This document shows positions 27,386-43,873 of a stretch of 64,000 nt of DNA, piece by piece. Below the pieces are notes generated by a model. That model ran no database searches. It was not told the DNA's origin and saw nothing but the letters and a program-made list of their open reading frames with translations. Source of the DNA: a virus (lineage: Duplodnaviria > Caudoviricetes); the IMG/VR virus record IMGVR_UViG_3300037781_000208, positions 18,840-82,839 of that record, one strand, 5' to 3'. The position numbers were made by a program, and so were the translations under genes. Numbering within the stretch: the stretch's first letter is position 1; each line of letters begins with the position of its first letter.

Positions 27386-27403
27386 TCAATGGCCAGCGGC
27401 GTG

Positions 27404-27739
27404 TCAACGATTGCGCCTTACCGAAGCGCCCCAGCCAGAGAAGACCGAGCCCAGATCATCGGTACTGACTGAATCCTGCGGCTCCAGGGACTTTCCAAGG
27501 ATGCGCCTGAATTGCTCCAGCTTCCGGCCAGCGTCCTTGTCCCACACGGCAAACGCCGCCAGTGCCTCCGTCTGAAGGGCCAGAAGAGCCTTGGTGGATT
27601 CCCGGCGATGATCCTCCCGGAGAATGAGCAGCACCTCCGGAAGCGACATGGTGGCGGCGACTTCGCCTACTGATCGCCCGAGGATGATGGCGCACTGGGC
27701 ACAAAGTTCCCCAAGGTCTGCTGCAGCTTCATTCCCTTT
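27404..27739 (-). CDS. Tail assembly chaperone, frameshift extension (gpGT-like)
   Basis: -1 frame ORF overlapping the G gene, no good start of its own; slippery A AAG GGA at 27739-27733. Confidence 0.65.
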   Translation of the reverse strand, partial: KGNEAAADLGELCAQCAIILGRSVGEVAATMSLPEVLLILREDHRRESTKALLALQTEALAAFAVWDKDAGRKLEQFRRILGKSLEPQDSVSTDDLGSVFSGWGASVRRNR

Positions 27740-28053
27740 TGGGCTACGGGCAGAAGAGCCTCGTTGAGATTGGCCCGCCGATTGGCCCACCGGCAGGCAT
27801 TCTGAAAATTTAGATCATGGGCCGCTTCAACGATCGAGAGGATTGAATCAACGGTGAGGGTCTGGATGAAGTCCTCGTCCTTGTCGGTGACAAAGGCGGC
27901 TAGGGCTTCCTCATCCTCGGCCTTGGCGAAGTATTCAGGGAACTCCCTGATCTTGAGCAGGCGCACCTGCACTTCGACCTGTTCGCCGGATTGGGTTTCA
28001 ATAGCTAGCGGGGAGTCGCCTGTGAGAATGCTGGAATTTGTTGAAGTGGTCAT
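27667..28053 (-). CDS. Tail assembly chaperone (gpG-like)
   Basis: Position directly upstream of the TMP; start trimmed to MTTSTNSS (28053). Confidence 0.75.
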   Translation of the reverse strand: MTTSTNSSILTGDSPLAIETQSGEQVEVQVRLLKIREFPEYFAKAEDEEALAAFVTDKDEDFIQTLTVDSILSIVEAAHDLNFQNACRWANRRANLNEALLPVAQKGMKLQQTLGNFVPSAPSSSGDQ

Positions 28054-28079
28054 GATCTGAATTCGGGTTGGGATTGGCG

Positions 28080-30839
28080 TCAACTGTGGGAAAGCGTCGG
28101 GACGAGTTCTTCGGCTTTCAGCCGGATCTCCTGCCATGTGGGAGAGCGGCCTGTGCCCCGATAGAAGGTGCGTTGCCAGGTCCGCATCTTTTCCTGAAAA
28201 TCGCAGTGGAGCTTTCCGATATGGGTCAGGGCTCCGGCTCCGTCGACCTGGGAAGAATCCTCCCGGTCTCCGGTGCCATCAAGGCTCTGCCATGCGTATT
28301 TCCAATGAAGGATAAATTCCAGGCCGGACCCGTCCCATTCGAAAAGCTTGGACCACAGGTCTTTGTAGAGCTGAGCATGATCCGCATCCGAAAGGGTGTC
28401 GCGGTTGATGTTGTATTCCGAGATGAACATCCGCGGACCCGACTGTGGTCCCCCCTGTTCGGGAAGTTTCGATTCGACGAGATTGAGTGCCTGATGGATC
28501 TCGGATTCGGTCATTGTCCGAAACTCATTGGCGGAGATGGACACATAATCGACTTTCGTGAGTGCGGGAAGAATCGAGTTGATGACTCCCCGGTTCCCAT
28601 CGACACCCCATGACAGCTTGTTGGTTTCACAATAGTTCCAGACTTCAACATCGGAGTCCGGCGTTGCGACCTTTCCCTGATCAATCCCATCCTGTCGGGC
28701 CTTTGTCCAAGCCGCATATCCAGCGATGTCCTGATCGGTGATGTTCGTGTCCGGGTTGGTGCTTCCGATACCTGCGAGCTGCCAGTCACCTTCCCAGTCA
28801 CCGAGGAAGAAACGACGCCCACTTCCCTTGTAGGTGTTTCGCAGGTAGACCGTGAAGGCATACCATTCGTTCCTGACGGTGTCCTGATAACCTTGCGTTG
28901 TAGGGAGATTAAACCGCCAGTCTCCAACTCCCAAGGTGTACGCCCAAAGGACCATGTCGGGGAATGGGATGTCGAGAATCGCCTTCGCCACCGGGTTGTC
29001 GCGCGCCAGTTCGGTAAGGGAATTGATGTCCGGGTCGACCGTGGTCTGAAGCGTCGCGTCTGTCGTCCCGTAGTCTGTGGGCCCAAGGCCAATTTTGAAA
29101 ACGGAAGCTCCCCGCTGGTAAGCGAGTTTCGCACAGTCAAGGGTGAGTTGACGGTCCTCCCCAAAGCCAAAATCGAGGTCATCAGCGCCGTCAAAATTCC
29201 CGATTTGCGCGGCCCCTAAAATGCAATTCACCCGGTCAACCGGATCGGAAACATCAACCTCGATCGCGTCTATGCGATGATCCCTTGTCAGGGAGCGGGT
29301 AACCTGCGCCCGCTCCGCATCCGATAGGACCCGGTTGAAGATAAGGACTTCGCGGATTTCGACAAAAGGATGTTCCTGGTTCCCGTTGGCGCCAATCGAA
29401 AGGAGGTTTCCAATCGGCATCTCCGATACGGAAGAACAAAGGACGTTGAACCCTTCCTTGACATATGCGCCCCCAGTGGAGGCAGGACGACCATTGATGA
29501 ATTCCTCGGCAGTGATGTAGGCTTGAGGCACGGTTCCGACCACAGAGACTCCGGATGCCTCGTGCACCCCGATTTGAAGGAGCGTCACCGTTCCGGAAGT
29601 GACCCGAAGCCGCAAAGATTCGCGTTCACGAACGACAAAGGGCCGGTCCACGGTAGAGAGCTTCGCAATGCGCGTGTTGAATCCTCCACTTCCCTGATAG
29701 ACCGATAGGAAGTCCCAATCCGCAATGACAGTGTCCTTGACCGCCCCATCGACATCGAGGAGTTCAATCGTAACTTCCTCACCACTTGCCACTCCGCCAA
29801 AGACGACGTGCTGCACCTCGACCGGACGGCTCCATTGAAATGTGAGCGAGTCGCCGCTTGCAGCGTCAAGGGTTCCATTTCCACTTGGGCCGGCGGTGAT
29901 TCCGATCGCTCCGGTAAGAAAGGCACTGTTTAAGTTGGGGTCCACTTTGCCGGTTGTATAGTCGACAAGGGTCATCGTCAGCTTGTCGCTTGAGAGCGGA
30001 ACATCTTGTCCTTGGAGCGGCGTTGCATTCCATCCAGTGAACAAAACCTGATAATCCTCGGACCAGCCGTCACCCTCATCGGGAGGAGTCGCAGGATCTC
30101 CACCAAAGAGATACTTTTTGCGAATCGAAGGCCCACGGATCTTTAATTCCAGACGGTTCTCCGAAATTTCATCGGTTGTGAGAAGGGCCTGATCCAGAAG
30201 AGCCTGGGAGAAGGCTCGGGCAAGCAGGTTGTTTTCCGCCTGCCGAAACACCATGAAGATGGTCGCCTGGGGACCGACTGAAAGATCAGTGACGTAGAAA
30301 TCGGGATTCAGGAAGCGCCGGAATTTGATGGCAGCCTTTCCACTTTCATCCGGTGCAAGATAAGCCGCCGTCCCGACGATGGTATTCTCGTTCTCGGAAT
30401 TCTCGACGATGTCAGCGAGGCTTGCCCCGTCAGCAAGTACCGGGAGTGCATCAGCCTTCAAATGGAAAATCAATCCACTCTCGATGAGGGCATCCGAAAG
30501 GATGTTCGTCCGCATTTTGAGCGTTTTCAGAAGCGAAGCCGGTAGGATTGAAGCGGCGACAGGGTTGAGATTCTTTTCGGACCCGCTCGCCTGGGTGTTT
30601 GCCGGGGACAATACAAGCGTATTCTCGGATCCAGCAGGAAGATCGTTTGCGGCGGGAGGATTGTTCGTGTTCGTGGGTCCTGCGGGCAGGACATTCGATG
30701 AAGGCGCAAATACCTCACTGACCGTTTCAGAATCGTTATCGGTGTCCGTCGTAGGCGTGCTGACGGTGGGCTCGATGGAGTTGGTCGGCCCGGTGGGCTT
30801 CGTGGAGGCCTCTCCATGTAGATTGTTGAGCGTGGTCAT
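28080..30839 (-). CDS. Large (919 aa) probable virion carbohydrate-binding / glycoside-hydrolase-like protein
   Basis: T/P/N/S-rich N-terminus; LamG-like EIREVLIFNRVLSDAER; C-terminal TIM-barrel-like region with FFLGDWEGDW. Confidence 0.55.
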   Translation of the reverse strand: MTTLNNLHGEASTKPTGPTNSIEPTVSTPTTDTDNDSETVSEVFAPSSNVLPAGPTNTNNPPAANDLPAGSENTLVLSPANTQASGSEKNLNPVAASILPASLLKTLKMRTNILSDALIESGLIFHLKADALPVLADGASLADIVENSENENTIVGTAAYLAPDESGKAAIKFRRFLNPDFYVTDLSVGPQATIFMVFRQAENNLLARAFSQALLDQALLTTDEISENRLELKIRGPSIRKKYLFGGDPATPPDEGDGWSEDYQVLFTGWNATPLQGQDVPLSSDKLTMTLVDYTTGKVDPNLNSAFLTGAIGITAGPSGNGTLDAASGDSLTFQWSRPVEVQHVVFGGVASGEEVTIELLDVDGAVKDTVIADWDFLSVYQGSGGFNTRIAKLSTVDRPFVVRERESLRLRVTSGTVTLLQIGVHEASGVSVVGTVPQAYITAEEFINGRPASTGGAYVKEGFNVLCSSVSEMPIGNLLSIGANGNQEHPFVEIREVLIFNRVLSDAERAQVTRSLTRDHRIDAIEVDVSDPVDRVNCILGAAQIGNFDGADDLDFGFGEDRQLTLDCAKLAYQRGASVFKIGLGPTDYGTTDATLQTTVDPDINSLTELARDNPVAKAILDIPFPDMVLWAYTLGVGDWRFNLPTTQGYQDTVRNEWYAFTVYLRNTYKGSGRRFFLGDWEGDWQLAGIGSTNPDTNITDQDIAGYAAWTKARQDGIDQGKVATPDSDVEVWNYCETNKLSWGVDGNRGVINSILPALTKVDYVSISANEFRTMTESEIHQALNLVESKLPEQGGPQSGPRMFISEYNINRDTLSDADHAQLYKDLWSKLFEWDGSGLEFILHWKYAWQSLDGTGDREDSSQVDGAGALTHIGKLHCDFQEKMRTWQRTFYRGTGRSPTWQEIRLKAEELVPTLSHS

Positions 30840-30885
30840 GTCATCAGGCGTGAGTGGGATTCAAGAGGAATGAATCTCAGCCTCC

Positions 30886-31428
30886 TCACGCATCCTTGCG
30901 CAGGTAAACCGTTCCGAGCGGCGAGAGCACATCGACCTTCAACTCGTATTCGCTGAAATCCTCTCCAAGGGAGAAGTCCCCCTCGAAGCGCACAATGCAG
31001 TGGAAGTCCTTGTGCATAAAGCGTGGGTCGGTCTGACTCTGGTTATCCCACATGCGGATACGGGCGAAGCCCTGGAGGCTCTGCGGTTGGCCGAAGGGAG
31101 TGAAGGTTTCATAGTCGGGATTCGTGCCGGTGTCCGCTCCCTGGGATGCGTAGAAGAGTGCCATGGCCGCCCGTTTTTCGAACTCGTCGAGCTTGATCTT
31201 ATAGCCTTTGCGCAACTGGGTGGTAACGGAGCGGTCAAGGATGCGGATGCCGCGATAGCTCCCGAAGTGGTCCTTCACTTCCTGCTCATTCATCACCGTG
31301 ACCTCTTTGACGTTTCCAAAGGCTGCTGCGGCAGCATCATAATCGCTTTCATTGGCGGGGGCGGCGGTTGCCCCGATGATGAGGGAGAAGTCTCCGGTTC
31401 CGACAAGAGTGAGATTTGGATTATTCAT
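30886..31428 (-). CDS. Major tail tube protein
   Basis: 180 aa; FGNVKEV...DHFGSYRG...GYKIKLDEF; typical position. Confidence 0.7.
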   Translation of the reverse strand: MNNPNLTLVGTGDFSLIIGATAAPANESDYDAAAAAFGNVKEVTVMNEQEVKDHFGSYRGIRILDRSVTTQLRKGYKIKLDEFEKRAAMALFYASQGADTGTNPDYETFTPFGQPQSLQGFARIRMWDNQSQTDPRFMHKDFHCIVRFEGDFSLGEDFSEYELKVDVLSPLGTVYLRKDA

Positions 31429-31864
31429 GGACGGGCTGGATGGTTAAAACCTTGAAGTTGCAGAAGTAGACCACCAGACCGCCATCGAGGGGCCCGGCTT
31501 CGTAGGCGGGGGTGTCAACCGTGAGCACATTCTGGAGTCCCCGCTGGGTCGGCCAGTTCGCCTGATGGAGCCATTGCAGGACCTCTTCCACGCACTGCAG
31601 GCAGGTTTTGCCGGTCTGGTTGGTGGCGGGATTCTCCAAGACACTCACCATAACGATATTCTCAAGGTAGAGCCGCGGACCCTTGCCGCCTGCCGGCCCC
31701 CCGGAAGCCTGTGTCACGACAAGGCAGATGCCGGTTTCCCGCAGGGCTGTTTCGAGCTTCGAGTTGAAGGATTCCTCCACAGTCGAGAGGATCTCAATTC
31801 CCGCGAAAAAGGCGTTCTGCCCGAGTGTGGTGATAATGTGCGAGATGACTTCCGAAAGCCTCAT
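31421..31864 (-). CDS. Tail terminator / completion protein
   Basis: 147 aa, directly upstream of the tail tube gene. Confidence 0.6.
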   Translation of the reverse strand: MRLSEVISHIITTLGQNAFFAGIEILSTVEESFNSKLETALRETGICLVVTQASGGPAGGKGPRLYLENIVMVSVLENPATNQTGKTCLQCVEEVLQWLHQANWPTQRGLQNVLTVDTPAYEAGPLDGGLVVYFCNFKVLTIQPVHE

Positions 31865-32238
31865 GCCGGAGAAGGCATGTCAACGTGGCAGCCTCTATCC
31901 TCGTAAGGGCATGCGTGGCGCAGGACCGGCATACGTGGCAACGCACTCATTGGGATGTAATGCTCACCTTCACGAAGCTGTCTCCGCGTGCAAAGGGCCC
32001 AATGGCCACAGGGGTGCCAGTAAAGCACCTGCGCCTCTCCTGCCTCCACCTCAGTCGCCACTCTCGGGACCAGATGCACCGGGGCGATCGTCGGCCTGAC
32101 CTTCTCTTTGAGATTCGTCCATATCCATGCGGCGCGGGAGAAGTTGTAGCTGTTCGCCGTGTTGATCGGTGAAACCCGCTGGCAGAGCTGCCCGTCCAGC
32201 ATGAACCAGCCACCAACCTGAATGTCGTCAAAAATCAT
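31861..32238 (-). CDS. Hypothetical protein (start reassigned to MIFDDIQ at 32238)
   Basis: ATGA overlap with the upstream gene; the longer ORF-track start overlaps a real gene. Confidence 0.5.
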   Translation of the reverse strand: MIFDDIQVGGWFMLDGQLCQRVSPINTANSYNFSRAAWIWTNLKEKVRPTIAPVHLVPRVATEVEAGEAQVLYWHPCGHWALCTRRQLREGEHYIPMSALPRMPVLRHACPYEDRGCHVDMPSPA

Positions 32239-32813
32239 GACGGCAGAGTCCTTCGGACAATGTTCATGAATTGCTCCTTCTGCTTTCGGGCAATGTAACC
32301 GCGCATGTCCCGGACCTGTGCCTGCATCGCCTTGCTGACCAATGCCCGCTTCTGGTTCTGGATCATCACACCGGAGAGATAGCTGGTCAGTCGTACCCTC
32401 GGACGGCGCTGCCCCTTGGCCGTGCGTACGATGGCCGCTCCAATCGCCGTCTTGGCCCGCGACAGCGCCTTGAAGAAGCCGGTCTGGCCATCCCGTTTGG
32501 AACGCCACTCCCGGAAAAGCCAACTGGCACTGAGCCACCCGATAGAGCGTTTTCGGGCGGCAATCTCCTGCTTCACCGAAAGCGTCTTGCCCTTCTTGTT
32601 CTTTCGTCTCCGGATGGCGTAATTGCGTGAGGCCGCCTCCTGCTCAATGCGTTCCTTGCTCGGGGCTATCGCCTTGAATTGTCGATACAACTCAAACCGA
32701 AGCCGCTTGGCCCTGGACTCAATCAACGGTCCCAGTTCCCGCTGGTTGTAGCGGGTGTATTCGCGCAAGGTCCTCTGGAAAGCCCGCACGTCCCTGGCTG
32801 AACCCGCATTCAT
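32235..32813 (-). CDS. Basic neck / tail-completion protein
   Basis: Arg-rich, 192 aa; position between head closure and terminator genes. Confidence 0.6.
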   Translation of the reverse strand: MNAGSARDVRAFQRTLREYTRYNQRELGPLIESRAKRLRFELYRQFKAIAPSKERIEQEAASRNYAIRRRKNKKGKTLSVKQEIAARKRSIGWLSASWLFREWRSKRDGQTGFFKALSRAKTAIGAAIVRTAKGQRRPRVRLTSYLSGVMIQNQKRALVSKAMQAQVRDMRGYIARKQKEQFMNIVRRTLPS

Positions 32814-33067
32814 AGCTTTCCCATGAACTTAAGCACCGCGATGACACCCACGGCAATCGCCGGAATGGAGGTCGCCACCCAGAAGAAGCGCAGGAGGATA
32901 TCCATCTTTCGTCGCAGGTCGTTGATGGCTGCCCGCAAACCATTGTCGCCCCGCTGACCCCAAAGCGTGACCTCAAGCGTCGTCACACGGTGATCCATTT
33001 TGGCGAACCGTTCAGCCACCTTCTCGCGACAGATGTCGCAGTCCTTTTTCAATTCATCCGGGCTCAT
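32810..33067 (-). CDS. Small coiled-coil + C-terminal TM protein (XhlA / holin-like)
   Basis: RVTTLEVTLWGQRGDNGL...FFWVATSIPAIAVGVIAVL; ATGA-coupled. Confidence 0.55.
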   Translation of the reverse strand: MSPDELKKDCDICREKVAERFAKMDHRVTTLEVTLWGQRGDNGLRAAINDLRRKMDILLRFFWVATSIPAIAVGVIAVLKFMGKL

Positions 33068-33378
33068 GGGTTCAAAACAGCGCATTCCACGCGGGCGATC
33101 AGTGAATTGGGGCTACGGTGCAGACGAGTCACCCGGTAAAGGAATCCATCCTCATCAGTGAGGCTCGCCCCGACCTTTAGGGCATCGGAGGGGATTTCAG
33201 AACGGAAGGCGGAAACCAGCACGCTGTCATCATCAGATGGAGTAAGGTCATATTCCTCACTCTCCGGTTGCAGTCGCTTAACGAGTCCCCGGAACGCTGT
33301 TACGCCATGCGTGAAGGTGCGACCGGTCGCTTCCAGTAATTCCTCGAATCCCTCCAATTGATCGGTGGTGTGACTCAT
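33064..33378 (-). CDS. Head closure / head-tail adaptor (lambda FII-like)
   Basis: 104 aa beta-rich protein just after the capsid gene. Confidence 0.6.
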   Translation of the reverse strand: MSHTTDQLEGFEELLEATGRTFTHGVTAFRGLVKRLQPESEEYDLTPSDDDSVLVSAFRSEIPSDALKVGASLTDEDGFLYRVTRLHRSPNSLIARVECAVLNP

Positions 33379-33403
33379 GTCTGCAAGAGCCTGTCAACCG
33401 GTC

Positions 33404-33438
33404 AAAGAAAGAGGCCCCACCGTCGCCAGTGGAGCCTC
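33404..33438 (-). terminator. Intrinsic terminator after the major capsid gene
   Basis: GAGGCTCCAC-TGGCGACG-GTGGGGCCTC followed by TTTCTTT. Confidence 0.75.
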
Positions 33439-33472
33439 GCAGGTGCTCGAACCGCAAGCTCGTTCAAATTGA

Positions 33473-34375
33473 TCAGGCAACGTCCTCGATGCGGAGAATA
33501 CCATCGGTGATGGCGGTGCGCCGGCCATAGACACACTCGAAAGCGGCGATTTCCTTGCCGGAGTCGTTGTCGTAGAAACGCCGGTACCCGATGGTGATTC
33601 CGGTCTCGGGATCCGTGACGGCTCCCGTTTCCAGGTAGGACTCCGGGCGCAGCGGTTGCAGGTAGCGCATCGCCACAGCCAGTCCCTTCGGATGTGCCAC
33701 AAAACCGACGAGATTCTCCGTGTTGTCCGGCATGATGGTCGTCTCATAGACATCAAAGCCGTAGATGCGCGGGATGCGGGCCTCCATCAGAGAGGGAGCA
33801 CTCATCTGCGCGAGGTAGCTCTGGGAGACCTTGGGATCGCCCAGCAAATTCGTGTAGTAGGCGTCGTTGATGATGAGGGCACGTGAAGCCACCGGCATGT
33901 TCTTGGCCGCACAGGCACCACGCAAAGAGAGAACCGTGGAGGCATCGAAGTCGGCGGCGGCCACCGCAGGGATCCCAGCCGCACCGTAGTTGGCGATGGT
34001 GACGATGTTCCAGATGTCCGTGAGAACATCCTCGGCCAACTGCCGGGCCTTTTCCTCGGCCAGGCGTTCCATGGTGGGCCAACTGGATTCACTCACTTCC
34101 TTGTCCGTCAGGTGCAGGGACTGAACCTTGTGGCGGTCCAGAACGACCGGCAGCGAATTGACGTTCGAATCCATGTTCTCCGAGTAGCTCCCCGCAAAGT
34201 CGTAGGAGGCGCCAGCGGCACCGACCACCGGCACATTCACCGTCTTCCCGCGTTCAATGAACTCGCTGGAAAAGTCGGTCGAGAACGCACGCAGGGGCGT
34301 GAGGGCGGCGACAAAGGTTTTGAGAAACTTGTCCGCAATGCGGATGTCCTGAAGATTGGTGAGGGTGTTGGCCAT
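33473..34375 (-). CDS. Major capsid protein
   Basis: 300 aa; GKTVNVP, LDRHK, ALIIN..YY.NLL, RIYGFDVYE, AFECVYG; follows protease and scaffold genes. Confidence 0.88.
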   Translation of the reverse strand: MANTLTNLQDIRIADKFLKTFVAALTPLRAFSTDFSSEFIERGKTVNVPVVGAAGASYDFAGSYSENMDSNVNSLPVVLDRHKVQSLHLTDKEVSESSWPTMERLAEEKARQLAEDVLTDIWNIVTIANYGAAGIPAVAAADFDASTVLSLRGACAAKNMPVASRALIINDAYYTNLLGDPKVSQSYLAQMSAPSLMEARIPRIYGFDVYETTIMPDNTENLVGFVAHPKGLAVAMRYLQPLRPESYLETGAVTDPETGITIGYRRFYDNDSGKEIAAFECVYGRRTAITDGILRIEDVA

Positions 34376-34404
34376 GACTGGTTCTTGATGTCAACTGTTG
34401 AGGG

Positions 34405-34872
34405 TTACTTGCCGATGAGGGCGTCGCGGTGCTTGCGGAAGAAAGCGGTTTTCTTTGCCGGATCGGTGATGGCGTTGAACTGCTCAAGGAGATCGGCCTG
34501 CTTCGCATCGCCTGCTGGGGTCACCTGGACAGGATCCACTCCAACAGAGGCGCAGATTTCAGCGGCTTTGCTCTCCGCTTCTTTTGCTTCGGATTCCAAC
34601 TGCGCAATGCGGGCATCAGCTTCGGCCTGCTTCTCCTTTGCCTGGGCGAGGTCGTGGTCCAACTGCTTTTCCTTCTCGTGGGCAGCGTTCAGATCATTGG
34701 TCAGGGCCGTGATCTTCTGGTTGGCATCCTCCAGCATTTCACTGGCGGCGGTAAGATCGCCCCGGACGGCATCCAGCTCGTCAGCCGAGCTTTGATGGGC
34801 CGAGAGCAGATTGGCGTAAGCCTCGCGTGCTTGGGCGAGTGTGTTCAGTTCTTCCGATGCGGCGAATTTCAT
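34405..34872 (-). CDS. Scaffolding-like coiled-coil protein
   Basis: Long Ala/Glu/Lys coiled coil between protease and capsid genes. Confidence 0.65.
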   Translation of the reverse strand: MKFAASEELNTLAQAREAYANLLSAHQSSADELDAVRGDLTAASEMLEDANQKITALTNDLNAAHEKEKQLDHDLAQAKEKQAEADARIAQLESEAKEAESKAAEICASVGVDPVQVTPAGDAKQADLLEQFNAITDPAKKTAFFRKHRDALIGK

Positions 34873-35696
34873 GCCTTCTTTGGCATGTCAACCAGACGCA
34901 GCAACTCGGCATAGGTATCGGCGTAACTGCCCACGTGATCCACGAGGTTTGCCTCCTTTGCTTTGCGACCAATAAAGGTCTGCCCGCGCATGGCATCCGG
35001 ACCGATGTTACGATGTTTCACGACATGATCGCGGAACTGCCCGAAATACTCATCCACCATTTCCTGTAGGTGTTCCCGGTGCGCGTCCGTGAATGATGGT
35101 GGCCAGGTTGCATCCTTCAGGTCGCCCCCGGTATGGGTGATGTAGGCGGGCTTCCAGCCGCGCTGTTCCCATGCCCCGGACACATCCACAAGGGGCAGGA
35201 TCGTTCCGATGCTTCCGACCTGCGCCGAGGGCGACATCGCAATAAAGTCCCCGGAAGCGGCCAGTGCATAGGCAGCCGAAGCTGCCAGTTCATCAATCCA
35301 TACGGCCTTCGGCTTTTTGATGCCGCTTAACATTTGGGCTGTCTCCACATTCCCGGCCGCCATGCCTCCAGGGGAATTTACGTGGAAGAGGAATCCCCGG
35401 GCGCCATCCTCGACAGCAATCTGGACTTCCTCCTCAATCTGCTCGTAACCGGTGTTTCCGCAGGAGCGTTCAATCTGGCTTAAGTGCCGTCCCAGGGTTC
35501 CCGTGATATGAACATGGGCGATTCCCTGCTCGTCGATCTCGGCATCCGGGCGGGGATTCACGAAGTCCGACAACTGAAGGTTCGAGGGATCCGCAAATAT
35601 CCTGCTCTGGAATATCTGGTGCAGGGCGAGCCATCCGTCACTGGTAATGTTCCATGGAGCGCGGTAAAGGGCGTTGGTGATGTGGGCGAGTCTCAT
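34869..35696 (-). CDS. S49 (SppA / ClpP-like) head maturation protease
   Basis: VNSPGG, AASAAYALAA, AQVGSIG, ANLVDHVG. Confidence 0.92.
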   Translation of the reverse strand: MRLAHITNALYRAPWNITSDGWLALHQIFQSRIFADPSNLQLSDFVNPRPDAEIDEQGIAHVHITGTLGRHLSQIERSCGNTGYEQIEEEVQIAVEDGARGFLFHVNSPGGMAAGNVETAQMLSGIKKPKAVWIDELAASAAYALAASGDFIAMSPSAQVGSIGTILPLVDVSGAWEQRGWKPAYITHTGGDLKDATWPPSFTDAHREHLQEMVDEYFGQFRDHVVKHRNIGPDAMRGQTFIGRKAKEANLVDHVGSYADTYAELLRLVDMPKKA

Positions 35697-35705
35697 GGCT
35701 GAAAT

Positions 35706-35775
35706 TGGGACGAGGGGCAGGAATCGAACCTGCGTTGTCGGGTTATGAGCCCGACCGAATCCATTTCACCCTCGC
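35706..35775 (-). tRNA. tRNA-Met(CAT)-like gene, 70 nt, shortened D-arm
   Basis: Acceptor GCGAGGG/CCCTCGT + C + CCA; anticodon arm TCGGG-CTCATAA-CCCGA; T-arm GCAGG-TTCGATT-CCTGC. Confidence 0.72.
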
Positions 35776-35896
35776 GCATCTTCATCCTTGGAGCTGTCAA
35801 CCAGCGCCCGAGCCTGCGGCATGGGTAAGTCCCCGAATGTCGAGAAGAAATTTCAGTCAAAATTGACTGATTTTCGGGCTTCTTATTCCAATTAAA

Positions 35897-36133
35897 ATGC
35901 CTTCTTTTCTGAGCATGAACTCAGCACAAAAGTCTGATTACCCGGATCCTTCCAAAGCCGTGCTAGGCTTTTCAAAAAGAGAGAAACTTTGGATTCCAGT
36001 ATTCTGGTCGCCCGAACACCAGTTCTGGTTCATGGAACTGGGAAGTGGTAATGTGGAATCATTTCCCCCCTCAGATATCATCGACTGGATGGATATGCCA
36101 AAGGCTCCAAAAGAATCAGTCCTTATAGGATAG
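35897..36133 (+). CDS. Small antisense-oriented moron ORF
   Basis: 78 aa, lower GC, fills the gap between the portal gene and the tRNA. Confidence 0.45.
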   Translation: MPSFLSMNSAQKSDYPDPSKAVLGFSKREKLWIPVFWSPEHQFWFMELGSGNVESFPPSDIIDWMDMPKAPKESVLIG

Positions 36134-37507
36134 GTTTGAGCCCTGCGGTTTGTAGAGCATTTCGGGAGGTACTCCGTATTTATTGGCAGCATCAATGATC
36201 GCTCTCGCATTCTGCCCCCGCTTTTCCAGCTCCTCCCGGAAATCCATGCCCAGTTCGGCGAAGTGATCGTCCAGGGTCTTAAGCCCTGTCTCCACATCTG
36301 CGCGATTTTGCTGGGCCTCCCGTCCGGCGTCGACTGTGATGCGTCGGGGCGTCACCCATGCCACCTTGTTCCAGCCCTTCTTGGGTTCCAACTCGCCACG
36401 GTCGATGGCATCCCCAATGACCCAGCCCCATGTGGGACGCAGGAATCGCTGGATGAGGATCAGTTGGCGATAGGAAAAGCGCCGGTCGGCCTTGGCGACA
36501 ATCAATCGGACTGAAGCTCCGCCAACCTTTGTCGGGTCGAGGACAAACTCATAAGGGAGAACGCCCGCACTGCTGTCCCGCTTCAAGTGCTCCAGGAATC
36601 CCGTGAAGACCGGGCTGGGTCGATGCGATTGGAAACTCTCCATGGATTCGCCTGGCTTCAAAGCCACCACCTTGCCCCCCACAATCTTTTGAATCGCAGT
36701 CGGATCACTCTGCTCGGCCAATTCACCCGTATCCGATGAGACCCGGAAATCCCCATCGTCCTCGAGTGTTCCCTCCTGACGCTTGATGATCCGGGATACA
36801 TCCTGATTGTCCTTAACTGCGTGCTTCTCCAGCGCGAGCATCTCCATTTCATCAAGAACGTGGTTGATCGAGTGCTGCATGGTCGGATGGCTGCGGGCGC
36901 CGCTGGCAAACTCCGGTTCAAAGACGTGCATCACCGCGTTGGCGTAAACCGGTCGGTAAGTGCCATCATCCTGCTGGACCATGTAAGCCAAGGGTGCCCC
37001 AAATTCATCGAAGAGCACTCCGTCAATGGATTCGGCATCATCGGCGCCGGACCCAACCCGGTGTGACTCAACCAACTGGATGCGGGCGCGGCCAAGGCGG
37101 TCGCGAACTTTCAGCACAAAGTATTCGCCGTCCACGTCGATGCCTCGGCAGACAAGGTTCTGGCATTCTTCGAAAGAGAATCGGTTCGTTACCTCCGGAC
37201 GGTTGCACCAGCGAAGAAAATACTGCTCTGCAGCGCGATTCCATTCGGGATCTTCGGTCTGCGCTTGTGGCCGGATTCCATCCCCGGTAGAGTAGATCGC
37301 CATGTCGCCCACCACTTCACGGGCAAATCCGCTGTTCTTGTTCAGGTACCGGCTCTTGCGCACCAGTTCACGCCGGGCGTGCGGGGTTAGTTCCTTTTTT
37401 GCATCGGTGGGCGCGGCTCCAGGGACCCGGGAACGGCGCGACGAGTAATTGGCCGCCTCGTAGGGGGAAATCGACAGGATGCGGGCAATGCGCTGGAGGA
37501 TCTTCAC
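36116..37507 (-). CDS. Portal protein, lambda family
   Basis: SRYLNKNSGFA, DGEYF..., VMHVFEP...RSHP, LKPGE......S.RP, SSAGVLPYE, W..PR...VDAGRE. Confidence 0.92.
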   Translation of the reverse strand: MKILQRIARILSISPYEAANYSSRRSRVPGAAPTDAKKELTPHARRELVRKSRYLNKNSGFAREVVGDMAIYSTGDGIRPQAQTEDPEWNRAAEQYFLRWCNRPEVTNRFSFEECQNLVCRGIDVDGEYFVLKVRDRLGRARIQLVESHRVGSGADDAESIDGVLFDEFGAPLAYMVQQDDGTYRPVYANAVMHVFEPEFASGARSHPTMQHSINHVLDEMEMLALEKHAVKDNQDVSRIIKRQEGTLEDDGDFRVSSDTGELAEQSDPTAIQKIVGGKVVALKPGESMESFQSHRPSPVFTGFLEHLKRDSSAGVLPYEFVLDPTKVGGASVRLIVAKADRRFSYRQLILIQRFLRPTWGWVIGDAIDRGELEPKKGWNKVAWVTPRRITVDAGREAQQNRADVETGLKTLDDHFAELGMDFREELEKRGQNARAIIDAANKYGVPPEMLYKPQGSNLSYKD

Positions 37508-37532
37508 GGCTCCGGCGCCATGTCAATCAGGA

Positions 37533-37787
37533 CTACTTTTCCAGATGGCCCACGAACCCGGTCGCTGATGTTTTCAATGGCTTTCCGTATGTCGCCGGAT
37601 CGAGCTTCTGCAGGGCCTTCTGGCAGGCGGCGATGACCGTATGAATCTCGTCAATCCTACGCTTGGTGACGCTGGATCCGTCATTTGCGTAGGCGGCCAA
37701 GGTCTTCTTCAGTTCAGCCTTTTGCGAGGTTAGGATTTCCTCGACCTCCACCTGGGTAAATCCAATGCTGTAATCAACAACTGCCAT
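37533..37787 (-). CDS. Head-tail joining protein (gpW-like); start MAVVDY at 37787
   Basis: Small protein between terminase and portal genes. Confidence 0.65.
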   Translation of the reverse strand: MAVVDYSIGFTQVEVEEILTSQKAELKKTLAAYANDGSSVTKRRIDEIHTVIAACQKALQKLDPATYGKPLKTSATGFVGHLEK

Positions 37788-37811
37788 TGAACAATTTGGA
37801 CCTGTCAACCC

Positions 37812-38120
37812 ATGACTGATGCTGAACTGATAGAGGAATTTATTGAAGTTGAGAAAGATGCTGAGAATGGCACTCACATCTATGTGAAGATGATTGAGTG
37901 GAATGGACAAACGCCGTTCACGAATCCAGTACGGGCTGTAACGCTTAAGAAGCCACCCTCAGAGGAACGCTTGGATCGGGAGTTCAAGAAAATCCTTGGT
38001 TACAAAAAATACTTTCAGGTTTGCTCTGAATGCGGAGAACGTAACCCAGTGGGATGGATGATTACTGAAATGGGTATCTGCCAGCAATGCGGGACTGAGA
38101 ATCACGGCATTGTCTATTGA
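37812..38120 (+). CDS. Small Zn-finger moron on the opposite strand
   Basis: CSECGE...CQQCG; 102 aa, inserted between terL and the gpW-like gene. Confidence 0.65.
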   Translation: MTDAELIEEFIEVEKDAENGTHIYVKMIEWNGQTPFTNPVRAVTLKKPPSEERLDREFKKILGYKKYFQVCSECGERNPVGWMITEMGICQQCGTENHGIVY

Positions 38121-39925
38121 GACTCTTCTTCTGCGGGCTGATCAACGCTCTCCCGTCCGATGATCTTGAGCATGGTTGCCGCCGCTGCTTGCATGGACTC
38201 ACAGTCCCAGTAATGATTGGCACGCTTGCCGATCTGCTTCCACATCCAAGTGTTCTTTTCCTTCACCCGGTTTTCGCTCTCCATCTGGGAGAGGTAGTCC
38301 TCGTCAATGTCGTCCGGAACTTCCCATGTCGGGCCGTTGGCCGGATCCTGATTGCGGCGAAGCCGGGCCAGCGTGTCCTTGATATTGAGATTCGACCAGT
38401 AGTGAACGAAGCAGTGTCGCCCTGCACCAAGTACCACCTTCCGTCTGGGTGAATAGAAACGCTGGATGGGTGTCTTGCTTTTGGAGCGGTGAGGAAAGGT
38501 CAGACGACGGTCCCCAATCAGGGCGATCCATCCAGTCTTGGAGCATTGTCGGTAAACGTCGTAGGTCGCATGGCCGGCATCGACAAAGACTAGGTTCGAA
38601 TGAATCCCAAAACGCTCCTGCAATGCCTCCACATCCGTAAAGGTGTGCAGCCGTTCATTCCAGACCAGCCGCGAGGATCCGTCCGGTCCCCATGAGCGGA
38701 CAACGGCAAAGAGATGATCCATCTGGCAGTCAACGGTAAGGATGCGAAGTGCAATGACCTGCTCCACAAATGGTGGTGCCACAATCGCCCCGGTTCGGGT
38801 GATGCCTCCTTCCTCCTCCCACGTCTCACCCTTGCGGTAGCCACAGATGGCAATCTCCATCTTGTAGTCCTCGACATATTCCCTCCAGGGGAGCGCGAGG
38901 CGCTTCTGGTAGAACTGTTGCAGGAGACTGGTATCGCCCTGTTTGGCGGCCGCTTTTGCTCGGAGGTAGAGTTCCGCCAGTTTCCCCCACGACATCGCAC
39001 AGAGGGCATTCCAATGAAAGCCTACATTCTCCACGGAGGCGTTCGTGTTGGTACGGATGAACCTGCCTGTAGCGTTCAATTGGCGACGAACCGCATCCGA
39101 ATCCGGGAAGTAATGGTTGCACTCGCAGCAGCGCATGGAAGTGGTCGCACGAACCTCAGAAAAATCCCATTCTCCATCGGCTCCTCGGGCGGACTTTGAC
39201 CATTCGACGTTTTCCCATTCAAAGGGCTGCCGGTGGCCACATTCCGGACAGGCGAAGGTCCACTCGCGCATGTCGGTCGTTTCAAACTTACGGTGGGTGT
39301 CATCATTCTCCTCGCCGCCCTGGGACATGAAGATGCACTTACCCAGCCATCCAAAGGCGGTCACGCGGGCCTCCGCTTCGGCCATGTGCCCGGTCGGCCA
39401 CCTCCACGTTTCATCACCGATCAACCATCGAATGGAACGGCGCTGGAGGTTCGTCTTGTTATGCGCCCCCAGTATCCAGAGCGTCATACCATTGGCAAAA
39501 TGGATCGTATGGTTTCTTCGCTTGTGCCGATCCCTCGGGTAGAGATTTTTAACGGGTTCACATTCCTCAAAGAGCTTCTGGATGCGCGATTCGGATTGGT
39601 CCTTCGCGTCCTCGTCGGTCTGGTCCAGCCAGAGGGTCGGGCCCGGGAGGTTGGCTATAATGTAGCAAAGGGTCAGCTCGGGCACCGTGGTCTTTGAGGA
39701 CTGCACCGAGGCAAGGATCGAGACCACCTTTACCCGCGGATCGACAATCGCTTCCATCACTTCACGTACCCATGGAGAATTGTCCGAGCGAAACCGGCCC
39801 GGCATCGGCGAATACGGAATCGTGGCAATGTGTTCCTCCGCCCATTCCCACGGAGGCCGGCGATCAGGAGGCTTCACGCCCTCGGCAAACATGCTGGCGA
39901 TTTCCCCGTTCATGCCTCCGTCCAT
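38114..39925 (-). CDS. Terminase large subunit, GpA family (likely start 39913)
   Basis: SPWVREVM, ASVQSSKT, LIGDE, FACPECG, LTVDCQ, NHYWDCE. Confidence 0.93.
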   Translation of the reverse strand: MDGGMNGEIASMFAEGVKPPDRRPPWEWAEEHIATIPYSPMPGRFRSDNSPWVREVMEAIVDPRVKVVSILASVQSSKTTVPELTLCYIIANLPGPTLWLDQTDEDAKDQSESRIQKLFEECEPVKNLYPRDRHKRRNHTIHFANGMTLWILGAHNKTNLQRRSIRWLIGDETWRWPTGHMAEAEARVTAFGWLGKCIFMSQGGEENDDTHRKFETTDMREWTFACPECGHRQPFEWENVEWSKSARGADGEWDFSEVRATTSMRCCECNHYFPDSDAVRRQLNATGRFIRTNTNASVENVGFHWNALCAMSWGKLAELYLRAKAAAKQGDTSLLQQFYQKRLALPWREYVEDYKMEIAICGYRKGETWEEEGGITRTGAIVAPPFVEQVIALRILTVDCQMDHLFAVVRSWGPDGSSRLVWNERLHTFTDVEALQERFGIHSNLVFVDAGHATYDVYRQCSKTGWIALIGDRRLTFPHRSKSKTPIQRFYSPRRKVVLGAGRHCFVHYWSNLNIKDTLARLRRNQDPANGPTWEVPDDIDEDYLSQMESENRVKEKNTWMWKQIGKRANHYWDCESMQAAAATMLKIIGRESVDQPAEEESQ

Positions 39926-40530: not shown

Positions 40531-40537
40531 ATCTGAT

Positions 40538-41233
40538 TTACTTCATGAGGAGCCAACCGGCGAATTGCAGATGCCGGTAGACCAGTTCATAGCGGACAAA
40601 GCCAACACGGCGAAAGAGTGCCTCGTTCTCAGCCACGGTCTGCGGGAACATCTGGCCACGCAGGGCAGCGGACTTGTTGAGAACCTCCTCGGGACTGAGC
40701 CCGTTCTCCAGCTTCATCTCCCAATACAGGGACTGGGTGATGTCCTGGAATTCCGGAATGCTCCCAAGAACCTTCTCAACAACGAAGAAGCCGCCTCCTC
40801 GTTTGAGGGAGTCATAGCATACAGACAGTACCGTTTGCTTGGCCCCTGGCCGGAGGAACTGGAGCGTATAGAGGGACACCCCGTAGTCATGCCCGCTGAT
40901 TTGGGTGAGCATGGAAAGGTCGCAGAAATGGACATCGACCCCCTTTGCCTTGGCCTGCTGGATCATCGCCCGGGAGTTGTCGTAGCCGATGACCTTGATG
41001 TCCTTCTGGGGATTGCGGGATTGAATTCTCAGCAGGGTCTCTCCGGTGGAGGCCCCAAGGTCGATCACTGTTCCGCCATCCTGCAGGAACCAGTCGGCAA
41101 AGCTCGCCGCCAGATCCTGAATGCGGTCATAATCCGGCACACTCTTTCGAACGTGCTCATCGAAATGAGGGGCGACCTTCTCGTCGAACACCCAGTTGCT
41201 GCGGGTTGTCTCAATGCCTTGTCCGGCTTCCAT
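40538..41233 (-). CDS. CmoA-like class I SAM-dependent enzyme
   Basis: WVFDEKVAPHFDEHVRKSVPDY, DLGASTG, DNSRAM, YTLQFL, VVEK match the CmoA layout. Confidence 0.8.
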   Translation of the reverse strand: MEAGQGIETTRSNWVFDEKVAPHFDEHVRKSVPDYDRIQDLAASFADWFLQDGGTVIDLGASTGETLLRIQSRNPQKDIKVIGYDNSRAMIQQAKAKGVDVHFCDLSMLTQISGHDYGVSLYTLQFLRPGAKQTVLSVCYDSLKRGGGFFVVEKVLGSIPEFQDITQSLYWEMKLENGLSPEEVLNKSAALRGQMFPQTVAENEALFRRVGFVRYELVYRHLQFAGWLLMK

Positions 41234-41256
41234 GCCGGGGAAGCTGATGTCAACGA

Positions 41257-41679
41257 TTAGCCCGGAAGCATCATCAGTTCCTGATCGGTTACCCGGACCG
41301 CCCCGATACCGTAGCGGGCGTACATTCCGCGCGTCATGGGGTTGCTTTCCAGACCGAAATATCCGCTTTCCCCGTACTTTGGAAAGATGCGGTTTTTAAG
41401 CAGGTGCTCCTTGATCTGGTGAGGACGTGAACTGATTTCTGCGAAATAGGAATCCATTGGCGACCAGCCGGTCTTCTCCGCGATTCGCGCCAAGGTGACT
41501 TCCTGATAGCGGTTGGGCCGGGCTGTGATGAGGATGACCCGGTGCGGGCGAAGCAGATCGACCAGCCACTGCCTGTACTCCTCCTGTTCAATTTGCCGGA
41601 TGAAGGGCCGGATTGGCGGAGTCCCACGCTTCGGAGAATTCCCCACAAGGGTGTAGTTAAGATCTAGGAGATAAATCAT
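41257..41679 (-). CDS. HAD-superfamily phosphatase-like protein
   Basis: LLDLNYTLV (DxD-like motif I), ILITARP (motif II), HLLK, GLESN. Confidence 0.65.
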   Translation of the reverse strand: MIYLLDLNYTLVGNSPKRGTPPIRPFIRQIEQEEYRQWLVDLLRPHRVILITARPNRYQEVTLARIAEKTGWSPMDSYFAEISSRPHQIKEHLLKNRIFPKYGESGYFGLESNPMTRGMYARYGIGAVRVTDQELMMLPG

Positions 41680-43187
41680 AGCTTCCCTCCCAATCGTTTT
41701 TCAAAGGCCGCAATTGCCTCTTGGGCCAAGCCCATCCGGGTGCCGTCCGGGTATGGCAGATCAAATTCAAATTCAAGAGCCGCCCTGAGCCGGTCCTTGT
41801 CGACTGGCAGGGCGTGGGCGCATGTAGCGGTGATGTTATTACTCATCTCCCTTACTTTGACGGAGCGAAAGAAGGGAGTCCAGAGCTGATGGAATTCTTT
41901 CTCGGTGTGGTACTTTTGGACCTTCGGTTTGTCCTGAAAATCACCGATGCGAATGCCGCTTTCGTAATCGAGGCGAAAGGCGATGTTCGCCGAGTTGGAC
42001 TTGTTCAAGAAGGCCTTGCCGTTGACCTGTCGCCAACCGGTTTCGCTCACGCTGGAGGCGCAGGCATAGACTTTTGTTTCCGGGCGGCAGAGTGCCTGGA
42101 GGATGACCGCGATGTGCTCGCGGTCCGATTGAAACGGCACCGAGTTGAGGACACTCGCGAGAAAGATCGATGTCCATTCCTGACCGCCCGACACCGCTTC
42201 CAAAAACTCCCGACAGATGACGAGGCTCTTGTCCTTGTCGATCTCTGAGCGGGTGATGTGGTAGGGCTCGAAGGCTGTCACCTCAAAACCGGCCGCCCGG
42301 AGGATCTTCGTTTCCGTGAGATGGCCGGCGCCGAAGTCGAGGATCCGGGTCCCATGTTCGCGCACCCATGCCGCCTTCTGTTTTGCATTGAAGATGTCGA
42401 AGGTGTGGCATGGCTTGGATCCATGGACGGCAAAGATGAAGCCGTTGCCCAATTCCTCCCGGACGCGCCGGGCCCGCCGGAATGAGTTGTAGCGAAGGAG
42501 GTCGTCGTAACGACTCTCCACATCAAAATCCATGGAAAGCAGATTCATCATCGCCTCCGCGAAAGCCGCCTCATCGTCCGAAACATACACCACCGGGGCG
42601 GTGTCGATCTTCTTCTCCGCAAGCATCTCCAATCGGCCAATGCCATTGATGACTGTTCCGTCGCCCTTGCAAATAATCGGCATCAGAATCCCGTGGCGGT
42701 GAAGGGTCCGGGCAAGGTTTCTGGCATACTGCATCCAGCGGTTGGAATTTGTCCTGCACAGTTCCTTCACACTTACCTGATTGGGAGTGAGACAGCGAAT
42801 GAACTCCGGGGAGTCGACCGCCTTGTCGGGAATGGCCTCTGCCAACCGGTGGACATCGAGGGCGGCCAGTTCCCTCGTCGCTTTCTGCGGAGTAGTGTTC
42901 CAGTCAAAGTCATTGGTCGCCCGATTGAAGACAATGTTCAGCGCCTTGCGCTGGGCCAAGTCCATCGGGCGGGTGCGGAACACTGGCAACTGCTTCGCCC
43001 CCATTCGGGTCGCCACCAGATGTCGCTGGTGCCCGGACAGAATCTCCCCGTTCGCATCGGCAAAGATAGGTGCCAGAAAACCGAGTTTCCGAAGGGAGAG
43101 CTCAATCAGATCCAGTCGTTCGGGATCGGCACTGCGGGGATTATAGGTGCTGGGCTGGATGGCCTCGATGTCTTCCAGGCGAATCAT
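41676..43187 (-). CDS. Tandem ParB / Srx-like domains fused to a Rossmann methyltransferase-like domain
   Basis: YNPR...GEILSGHQR; second domain GILMPII...VINGIGR; C-terminal ILDFGAG...TAFEPY...ASVLNSVPF. Confidence 0.8.
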   Translation of the reverse strand: MIRLEDIEAIQPSTYNPRSADPERLDLIELSLRKLGFLAPIFADANGEILSGHQRHLVATRMGAKQLPVFRTRPMDLAQRKALNIVFNRATNDFDWNTTPQKATRELAALDVHRLAEAIPDKAVDSPEFIRCLTPNQVSVKELCRTNSNRWMQYARNLARTLHRHGILMPIICKGDGTVINGIGRLEMLAEKKIDTAPVVYVSDDEAAFAEAMMNLLSMDFDVESRYDDLLRYNSFRRARRVREELGNGFIFAVHGSKPCHTFDIFNAKQKAAWVREHGTRILDFGAGHLTETKILRAAGFEVTAFEPYHITRSEIDKDKSLVICREFLEAVSGGQEWTSIFLASVLNSVPFQSDREHIAVILQALCRPETKVYACASSVSETGWRQVNGKAFLNKSNSANIAFRLDYESGIRIGDFQDKPKVQKYHTEKEFHQLWTPFFRSVKVREMSNNITATCAHALPVDKDRLRAALEFEFDLPYPDGTRMGLAQEAIAAFEKRLGGKL

Positions 43188-43837
43188 ATGCCGAGCCGTT
43201 TCTTGAGTTCCTTCAATACGGATTCCTTGTCGAATCCCACCTCCTGTTTCACGGAATCAATCCAGGTGAGGTAGTCCTCCTGGGGGAGCTTGAATCGGTA
43301 AAGTCCAAGAGCGATAGTCACGTCACCTTTTTCGAGGTCCTCCTCTTCGGCGTCCGTATCATCGGGAGCGTTGCCTTCGGGATTGAGGAGACTGTCCAAG
43401 TCCGCGTCCTCAAAACCGGTGAGGAGCGTATCAAACCCGTCTACCTTGAGGTCATTGACCACGGATTCGAGCGAGTTTAAATCAATGCTGGCCAGCTCCG
43501 CGAGGCGGTTGTCGGCAACAAGCACCGCCATTTCATCGTTCTCGCTGGCAAAATCCTGATAGTCGACCGGCACAAGCTGCAAGCCAAGGTGTTTGGCGGC
43601 GGCAAGGCGACCGTGGCCGGCGACAATCAATCCGCTTCGCTTGGAGACTGTGATTGGGTGACGCCATCCAAAATAGCGGATGTTCTTCCCCAAGAGCTCG
43701 ATCTGGCGGGCGGGGTGCGTGTTCGGGTTGCGAGGGTTGGGTTGCAGATCCTCTACGGGCACAAGTTTGTCAAAGCCGCACCAGACTTCGATGCCATCGG
43801 CCAATCCCTTCGCCTTCACTTCATTGGGTTCGCTCAT
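43184..43837 (-). CDS. ParB / Srx-like domain protein
   Basis: PNPRNPNTHP..QI..L...I..FGW..PI.V...LIVAGHGRL.AAK.LG...VPV, ADNRLAE. Confidence 0.88.
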   Translation of the reverse strand: MSEPNEVKAKGLADGIEVWCGFDKLVPVEDLQPNPRNPNTHPARQIELLGKNIRYFGWRHPITVSKRSGLIVAGHGRLAAAKHLGLQLVPVDYQDFASENDEMAVLVADNRLAELASIDLNSLESVVNDLKVDGFDTLLTGFEDADLDSLLNPEGNAPDDTDAEEEDLEKGDVTIALGLYRFKLPQEDYLTWIDSVKQEVGFDKESVLKELKKRLGI

Positions 43838-43873
43838 GCGGGTGGGCAGGATGTCAATTCACCCGCTTCACAG

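Follow-up and report, generated by a model that had tools for sequence, protein, structure and literature searches.

TTGACA box and the genes behind it

The DNA analysed here (the window) is a 64,000-nucleotide (nt) stretch of the IMG/VR virus record IMGVR_UViG_3300037781_000208, and the element described is a hexamer, TTGACA (the box), that stands at a nearly fixed distance before many of its phage genes. An earlier reading of the window from its letters alone (the sequence-only reading) had listed ten RTTGACA-N13-16-start sites, R being a purine. Each copy was read again, and all ten minus-strand TTGACA-N13-16-ATG/GTG sites were found at the positions and with the spacers listed, the spacer being 13 nt in five, 14 nt in two, 15 nt in two and 16 nt in one. 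A site takes its coordinate from the first T of the box in plus-strand numbering, and the spacer is the number of nt between the box and the start codon.

All ten boxes are on the minus strand. A spacer of 16 nt precedes ATG 27385 of the tape measure gene (25031-27385; box 27402..27407). Spacers of 13 nt precede the ATG of a tail-module gene of 147 amino acids (aa) (box 31878..31883, ATG 31864), a 104-aa gene (box 33392..33397, ATG 33378), the major capsid gene (33473-34375; box 34389..34394, ATG 34375) and a 155-aa coiled-coil, scaffold-like gene (box 34886..34891, ATG 34872), as well as GTG 37507 of the portal gene (36116-37507; box 37521..37526). The tRNA-methyltransferase-like gene (40538-41233; box 41248..41253, ATG 41233) and the ParB-like gene (43184-43837; box 43852..43857, ATG 43837) have 14 nt, and an 84-aa gene between terminase and portal (box 37803..37808, ATG 37787) has 15 nt. 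The tenth box (35795..35800) belongs to a phage tRNA-Met, with 19 nt to the mature 5' end of the tRNA and 15 nt to an ATG located 4 nt before it. The boxes of the 147-aa and 155-aa genes lie inside the 3' ends of the upstream open reading frames (ORFs), in the second case the protease gene, and these ORFs end in ...VDMPSPA* and ...VDMPKKA*, as described earlier in the form VDMPxxA. The box of the 104-aa gene had been placed immediately after the capsid terminator, and an intrinsic-terminator-like hairpin with 12 pairs, 8 of them G:C, and a T-run was found after the major capsid gene (33411..33438, minus strand), stopping a few bases upstream of the box at 33397.

TTGACA occurs 21 times in the window, 19 times on the minus strand, and shuffles predict 31.9 copies. 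Ten of the 19 minus-strand copies have the site spacing, for which the chance is about 1e-10 (binomial on a base rate of 3.4 % for permuted hexamers). The signal is therefore one of position and strand, not of count.

The names capsid, portal, protease, tape measure, large terminase, tRNA-methyltransferase-like and ParB-like are backed by PHROG or Pfam. Of the gene names used in the sequence-only reading, 'tail terminator', 'head closure', 'gpW-like' and 'scaffold' (the 147-aa, 104-aa, 84-aa and 155-aa genes) had no family match and describe position only. A 919-aa ORF (28080-30839, minus strand), with the major-tail-like gene on one side and the tape measure chaperones on the other, also had no Pfam or PHROG match. 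The statement that most late genes lacking the box are overlap-coupled to the gene upstream was largely upheld, with exceptions that include the 919-aa ORF starting at 30839, terS at 40530 (7-nt gap) and the protease gene at 35696 (9 nt after the tRNA). The description of the box as a motif of late genes proved too narrow, as the genes headed by it in the window include the ParB-like, methyltransferase and partner genes and that of the tRNA, and those in relatives include replication genes.

Conservation of the box and its restriction to phage DNA

The record is a single 82.8-kb viral contig whose first 21 kb are taken up by another, diverged copy of this type of phage (G000:C1:1-21100). This second prophage copy lies upstream of the window, its end being window positions 1-2225, and is arranged in tandem with identical gene order. 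Its portal, gpW-like, methyltransferase, ParB-like, scaffold-like and tRNA units retain TTGACA with its spacing but have diverged in spacer sequence, a pattern that amounts to a natural footprint. From codon 4 onwards the two portal genes show synonymous differences, so the GTG after the portal box is the real start.

A portal-related set was collected by portal search and consisted of 11 loci from metagenome-assembled genomes (MAGs; Opitutales, Puniceicoccaceae, Coraliomargarita, Oceanipulchritudo, Rubritalea) and 22 IMG/VR loci. With the window contig these 33 loci made 34 sequences and 474 kb, in which a site was counted where the ATG or GTG opened at least 60 codons. The repetition in related Verrucomicrobia prophages that had been suggested with the sequence-only reading extended the pattern well beyond one contig: an ATG/GTG opening an ORF was found 13-16 nt downstream of 162 of the 301 TTGACA copies but of only 3.4 % of permuted hexamers. 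The spacers were 13 nt (108 sites), 14 nt (32), 15 nt (14) and 16 nt (8). A stricter rescan gave 161 sites, every one on the gene strand, across 31 of the 33 portal-related loci, and their start codons were ATG (123), GTG (37) and TTG (1). TTGACA was by far the top hexamer at the site spacing; one-mismatch variants were scarce, and only TTGACG reached 8 sites at 13 nt. Apart from the hexamer, the site logo showed a purine at the position preceding it, a spacer with a weak nGCC...GGC and, just ahead of the start codon, a pyrimidine, with C in 80 and T in 24 of 130 unique sites. In some gene families the ATG follows the box by 17-20 nt, and the sequence from position 14 onwards reads cAAAGCC, as it does between box and tRNA in relative L004; this shared sequence suggests a common start point ~14 nt past the box.

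Frequent occurrence of the same spacing in unrelated host genes had been named beforehand as an observation that would count against a phage signal. In five host genomes (3.4-4.4 Mb), with prophage contigs set aside, GTTGACA-N13-ATG occurred only at the level of the reversed-pattern control. On this genome comparison the arrangement appears to be a phage trait and not a host trait.

Absence of a -10 element and of Shine-Dalgarno sites

The exact -35 hexamer of sigma70-type promoters is present at all sites, but the -10 box is absent at the right spacing: TAnnnT was found 16-18 nt past the box at 0 of the 130 unique sites (0-4 in shifted-offset controls), as the sequence-only reading had stated for the window, and a sigma70-type promoter is contradicted by the sequence. 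Its remark that most spacers have no Shine-Dalgarno (SD) site was likewise borne out. An SD-like core was present in 17 of 130 spacers, in 13 of these only 1-3 nt from the start and so too close, which leaves ~4 of 130 at a usable distance. The box itself was rejected as an SD-type ribosome-binding site because it is not purine-rich, lies 13-16 nt from the start and also precedes a tRNA gene. A T4-type late promoter was discarded since the spacer is G+C-rich and has no conserved A/T element, and a P1 Lpa-type late promoter since the -10 hexamer is absent and the box is not palindromic. When compared by eye, sigma54 (-24/-12), sigma32, sigma28 and T7-like readings did not fit the logo. Small-subunit rRNA, sought in three host MAGs for pairing of the 16S 3' end with UUGACA, was not found in them.

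Box orientation and surroundings

Antisense copies of TTGACA are depleted 2-3 fold relative to a maximal-order Markov expectation, with 19 observed and 36.8 expected in the portal set. In a second set of loci, anchored on the candidate factor described below, 41 antisense copies were observed against 116.6 expected, and 265 sense copies against 166.6. Depletion on the antisense strand fits a promoter and not a signal read on the sense RNA.

Besides the terminator before the box at 33397, a hairpin is located before the tRNA box. In relatives, AT-rich accessory genes on the opposite strand were found upstream of boxes (L022:7048-8106, L024:12107-12964, L026:1589-2191 and L003:15167-16048). The gap between such a gene and the box is 1 nt for a Y-family polymerase (L022), 4 nt for a DUF2441 gene (L026), 54 nt for a HEPN gene (L024) and 102 nt for a DUF4386 gene (L003). 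Where an opposite-strand gene abuts the box, the box-headed gene must be the first of its unit, and there is no space for another promoter outside the coding sequence of the neighbour. This layout suggests that boxes mark the borders of independent transcription units that tolerate insertions.

The spacers fold better than shuffled ones (z ~ -8). A spacer hairpin as a defined element was dropped, as it had no fixed register, its pairing was near the column expectation and covariation was not found. The start codon was paired in 30 % of sites and in 26 % of shuffles.

Phage tRNA-Met

The tRNA-Met(CAT) lies at 35706..35775 on the minus strand and has an initiator-type anticodon arm; the protease ATG (35696) comes 9 nt after its CCA end. 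The distance from the box to the mature 5' end of this tRNA is 18-28 nt, mostly 19, in 13 relatives as well as in both contig copies. In most relatives the interval between box and tRNA contains no ATG, and for this reason the ATG of the window, read earlier as the start of a 'uORF', is considered incidental. Over 18 nt the anticodon stem-loop equals that of E. coli metY, the initiator gene that adjoins rimP-nusA-infB, and three consecutive G:C pairs close the anticodon stem. The 1:72 pair, which looks weak, is G.U, in relatives A-U or C x U and never G-C; it differs from the canonical C1 x A72 of E. coli. The D arm is very short. Processing of the tRNA 3' end alone could yield a near-leaderless protease mRNA. 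Initiation on leaderless mRNAs relies heavily on initiator tRNA and IF2, and an initiator-type tRNA-Met under the box is a circumstantial point in its favour.

Candidate factor and partner gene

The interval 47229..48414 had been marked earlier as that of candidate activators, and a conserved DNA-binding protein that co-occurs with the box is indeed encoded within it. This candidate cognate factor (47869..48414, minus strand) is 181 aa long when trimmed to the start of its homologues, has a helix-turn-helix like that of sigma region 4 and belongs to no Pfam family. Directly downstream lies a conserved partner gene of 230 aa (47229..47921, minus strand), weakly DUF1016_N/DUF3102-like. The factor family has more than 1,190 homologues and no Pfam domain, and one source tags a member as a sigma-24-type factor; none of the homologues was in 50,697 GenBank phage records. 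The recognition helix GVTRAAVSKRC is invariant across the family, and the conserved core resembles the helix-turn-helix of sigma region 4.2. The factors of the two contig prophage copies are 36 % identical overall, yet the helix and the box are common to both. An invariant recognition helix parallels an invariant box, a likeness that supports the assignment of the factor.

The AlphaFold model of the factor had a predicted local distance difference test score (pLDDT) of 75.8. Residues 64-142 matched the region-4 domains of sigma32, SigB, sigma A, SigK, SigL, AlgU and sigma E with Z of 5-6.2 (VIA); a Foldseek search against PDB gave no match at E<=0.001, and a profile search of PDB sequences with the factor gave nothing meaningful. 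Among 37 family members, Pfam Sigma70_r4 matched 11 below threshold, and other helix-turn-helix families matched as well. A PHROG sigma factor match, also sub-threshold and not exclusive to sigma, was obtained in five of the 37. The N-terminus consists only of a 36-residue helical hairpin followed by a disordered linker. As no region 2 was seen by Pfam or in the fold search, which barely covered this N-terminal part, the protein is termed sigma4-like and is not called a sigma factor.

A partner gene of 200-250 aa follows the factor gene in 81 fetched loci, and the factor/partner cassette was found wherever portal loci extend far enough. A site was present at least once in 52 of the 80 loci of the factor-anchored IMG/VR set; 82 sites had spacers of 13-16 nt and 17 had 18 nt. 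The spacing in this set is broader (13-15 and 18 nt), and the boxes head ParB-like genes or, in some loci, the gene that opens the replication module. A search of all large ORFs found no phage RNA polymerase. The position, strand and invariance of the box, its phage specificity and its co-occurrence with the cassette are observed facts, and the conserved 181-aa protein is likely to be the reader of the box.

An eleventh box (47959..47964, minus strand), which the sequence-only reading had also located correctly, lies inside the 3' end of the factor gene. It is followed by N13 and then ATC, and 24 nt further by ATG 47921, the in-frame start of the partner gene. The same box encodes the L-T of a conserved MRSLTA in the factor. 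At the orthologous site TTGACA-N13/14-ATG is present in the second prophage copy, L038 and L040, and ATC takes the place of the ATG in L027; the start of the partner gene seems to have shifted 24 nt downstream in the lineage of the window phage.

The cassette is also carried by elements of Chthoniobacter flavus and of freshwater origin that have no virion genes, where TTGACA-N13/14-start heads the partner gene or the next gene. Loci L034-L037 (C. flavus Ellin428 and relatives), L039 and L040 combine a replication module and the cassette with one or two TTGACA-N13 units, and virion genes were not found within 10 kb in them. They may be satellite-like elements or prophage remnants on the same promoter system.

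Proposed promoter

RTTGACA is probably the sole recognition element of a phage-specific promoter that would start 13-16 bp downstream and give leaderless or very short-leader RNAs. It is also rather likely that this promoter class is used by a clade of temperate siphophage-like viruses of Verrucomicrobiota (Opitutales/Puniceicoccaceae-type) and by related small elements. In the proposed mechanism, early genes, which have SD sites, would make the sigma4-like protein (47869-48414). This protein would bind RTTGACA, perhaps together with the product of the partner gene (47229-47921), and direct host RNA polymerase to start 13-16 bp downstream, at a pyrimidine/purine step. In most units the purine would be the A or G of the start codon, and the mRNA would be leaderless. 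The start at the AUG proposed in the sequence-only reading is retained for most units as a deduction, and it would not apply to some units, which would have a 4-10 nt leader; the tRNA unit would have a leader of 3-6 nt, removable by RNase P. Cistrons without a box would be translated through overlap coupling.

Without a ribosome-binding site only a 5'-terminal start codon would be usable, so every cistron that is not overlap-coupled would need its own box, and one box per uncoupled cistron would explain the ~eleven copies in 20 kb. The lack of SD sites and the restriction to ATG and GTG starts fit leaderless mRNAs; few SD sites, ATG/GTG starts at 160 of 161 sites and a spacer of exactly 13 nt at 108 of 162 sites are what is seen.

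Several points weigh against this promoter. A box at -19 to -14 combined with a G+C-rich stretch at the place of the -10 element matches no known bacterial holoenzyme geometry, and the melting of the DNA is without explanation in the mechanism. The likeness to sigma4 is modest (Z ~6, Pfam below threshold), binding of the box is predicted, and sigma region 2 was not seen in the factor by Pfam or by the fold search, which barely covered the N-terminal part. GTG, on which leaderless initiation is inefficient in E. coli, is the start codon of about one third of the 13-nt sites. Box and SD site are both missing from several uncoupled genes, for example the 919-aa ORF at 30839, which also lacks an overlap. 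In the portal set, 117 sense-strand copies have no long ORF at 13-16 nt; part of these are accounted for by tRNA, by the 17-20 nt class and by codons for conserved residues, and the rest fall outside these classes. Sequencing runs matching 31000-38500 were DNA metagenomes only, with no RNA run, so that the start point, like the promoter role, the identity of the factor and the participation of sigma A, is deduced from the arrangement of the DNA. When the capsid protein was used to scan metagenomes for contigs that, like a transcript, end at the start codon, only three DNA contigs were obtained, all of which extend upstream.

A more specific form of the proposal is tentative. In this form the promoter is minimal, the sigma4-like head alone positioning host polymerase 13 bp past a -35-type hexamer with no -10 element; the initiator-type tRNA-Met feeds leaderless initiation; and the factor family constitutes a widespread transcription system of Verrucomicrobiota viruses and satellite-like elements. 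It is possible that all of this holds, and the odds are somewhat against it.

Other explanations of the box

The alternative that fares best, itself unlikely, is that the box is a site for a phage regulator and not a promoter, for example an operator, a roadblock or a site where an antiterminator loads, and that transcripts start at another place. By sequence the associated protein is a generic helix-turn-helix protein, and if transcription began at the start codon the box would overlap the expected place of sigma domains 2/3, which would be awkward for an activator. Against this, nothing upstream of the box is conserved except the purine at -1, and in many units the DNA upstream belongs to the end of the preceding coding sequence or to a divergent gene, with no other promoter element visible. 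An operator alone would also need neither the 13-nt lock to the start codon nor the pyrimidine/purine step.

Slightly less probable again is RNA processing, in which UUGACA in a long late transcript would guide an endonuclease to cut ~13 nt downstream and so produce leaderless mRNAs and the tRNA precursor. A measured cut would account equally well for a start codon and a tRNA 5' end that lie at a fixed distance from the box, a copy stands at nearly every uncoupled cistron, and the spacers do fold somewhat better than shuffles. The hairpin, however, has no fixed register or covariation, and a signal on the sense transcript does not require the antisense depletion. A box also follows a strong terminator, and divergent genes 1-4 nt from the box leave no space for a separate promoter outside the coding region of the neighbour. 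Finally, the box co-occurs with a helix-turn-helix protein and not with a nuclease.

The sequence-only reading had left the choice between a promoter and a non-SD signal for translation initiation, and of the two the promoter is favoured by the tRNA, the terminators, the divergent genes, the antisense depletion and the DNA-binding protein. It is very improbable that the ribosome or an RNA-binding factor of the phage reads the box as a signal on the mRNA, even though a short element, a variable spacer and a start codon at most uncoupled cistrons, with SD sites absent, resemble the layout of a ribosome-binding site. The same box precedes a tRNA gene at the same distance, mostly without an ATG, host genes do not use it, and a modal spacer of 13 nt, reaching 18-20 nt in some families, is long for ribosome contact; the depletion and the terminator and divergent-gene contexts indicate DNA. 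The least credible explanation is a host sigma A promoter with TTGACA as its normal -35 box, whose -10 box and transcription start would fall within the ORF. TTGACA is the sigma70 -35 consensus, and TTGACA-N17/18-TAnnnT arrangements do exist in host-like AT-rich parts of the contig; but the sites lack TAnnnT, sigma70-type promoters were not in excess in a consensus scan of 27-46 kb, and an mRNA begun inside the ORF would lack the start codon at which coding conservation begins in the portal copies.

Comparison with known systems

In sequence and orientation the box equals the sigma70 -35 hexamer, and the best fold matches of the factor are region-4 domains bound to -35 DNA. The arrangement differs in having 13-16 nt to the presumed start instead of ~29-31, no -10 element and almost no tolerance of mismatches, and in being absent from host genes. 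T4 late promoters use a reduced sigma-like system in which sigma2-like and sigma4-like functions reside in separate proteins (gp55/gp33). They likewise consist of a single short, strictly conserved element that is repeated before many late genes and read by a phage-encoded protein. The T4 box is an A+T-rich, -10-type element (TATAAATA) ending ~5 nt before the start, and the present one is G/C-flanked and lies further upstream; gp33 binds no DNA and T4 mRNAs carry SD leaders, whereas the candidate reader here is sigma4-like. In the Lpa late promoters of P1, an activator element unusually near the start (~-22) replaces the -35 box, a similar placement; P1 retains a standard -10 hexamer and its element is palindromic, in contrast to the asymmetric box without -10 found here.

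Among leaderless systems, the Thermus phages phiYS40 and P23-45 use a phage-modified host RNA polymerase to make late transcripts, many of which have the start codon at their 5' end. The likeness lies in the leaderless middle and late transcripts of a phage. The P23-45 promoter class (PMC7403470) differs, as it has an (extended) -10 element ~7 nt before the start and no upstream box, and here only a -35-like hexamer is present at -19 to -14. The leaderless genes of Actinobacteria and Deinococcus reportedly form group C of GeneMarkS-2. They share ATG/GTG starts, the lack of SD sites and a promoter element at a sharply fixed distance; their element is a -10 box 6-7 nt upstream that is used host-wide, and the present one is restricted to phages and has another sequence and position. 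For mycobacterial leaderless mRNAs an RTG start rule has been described (PMC4633059), which the ATG/GTG starts noted above resemble.

Phage-specific promoters, leaderless late messages, single-element late promoters and activator boxes near the start are all known. Different here are the -35-type hexamer 13 nt from the start without a -10 element, one promoter per uncoupled cistron and the tie to an undescribed sigma4-like family; a promoter with such a hexamer as its only element is not known. A literature search found no description of such a box or spacing, nor of Verrucomicrobia phage promoters. If the proposal is true, it would have to be explained anew how polymerase is positioned and how the DNA is opened, and a function could be assigned to a large family of sigma4-like phage proteins that is so far uncharacterised. 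Start codons and transcription units across a clade of uncultured Verrucomicrobiota viruses would be fixed by the rule 'TTGACA plus 13-16 nt', and a box per unit would explain how opposite-strand accessory genes could be inserted among late genes without loss of expression. The pair of promoter and factor could also serve as a compact orthogonal system for hosts that have no genetic tools.

Additional features of the contig

An internal GTTGACA lies within the 147-aa tail-module gene (31513..31518, minus strand), ~85 nt before ATG 31428 of the major-tail-like gene. It is kept in at least nine relatives, though the codons after it vary (VDT, VDK, VDN), and is possibly an internal promoter with a leader. 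Both prophage copies end in a pair of ORFs of ~390-435 aa, one of which has a helix-turn-helix. Between the prophages, window positions 2300-19100 have a lower G+C content and contain defence-like and mobile genes, including a Mrr_cat-ResIII helicase fusion (13679-15343), a HATPase_c_3 protein (15354-17759), two FGE-sulfatase proteins and a tyrosine integrase (6735-7883). An inverted repeat, TGTCGT...ACGACA, at ~45755-45795 (minus strand) precedes the first minus-strand gene past two plus-strand genes (45872-46507); it is shared by the two prophage copies and resembles the operator of a divergent immunity region. A 1,498-aa ORF (48938-53434, minus strand) is a fusion of PrimPol, a 3'-5' exonuclease and family A DNA polymerase (PolA), and the same fusion precedes the factor gene in L039.

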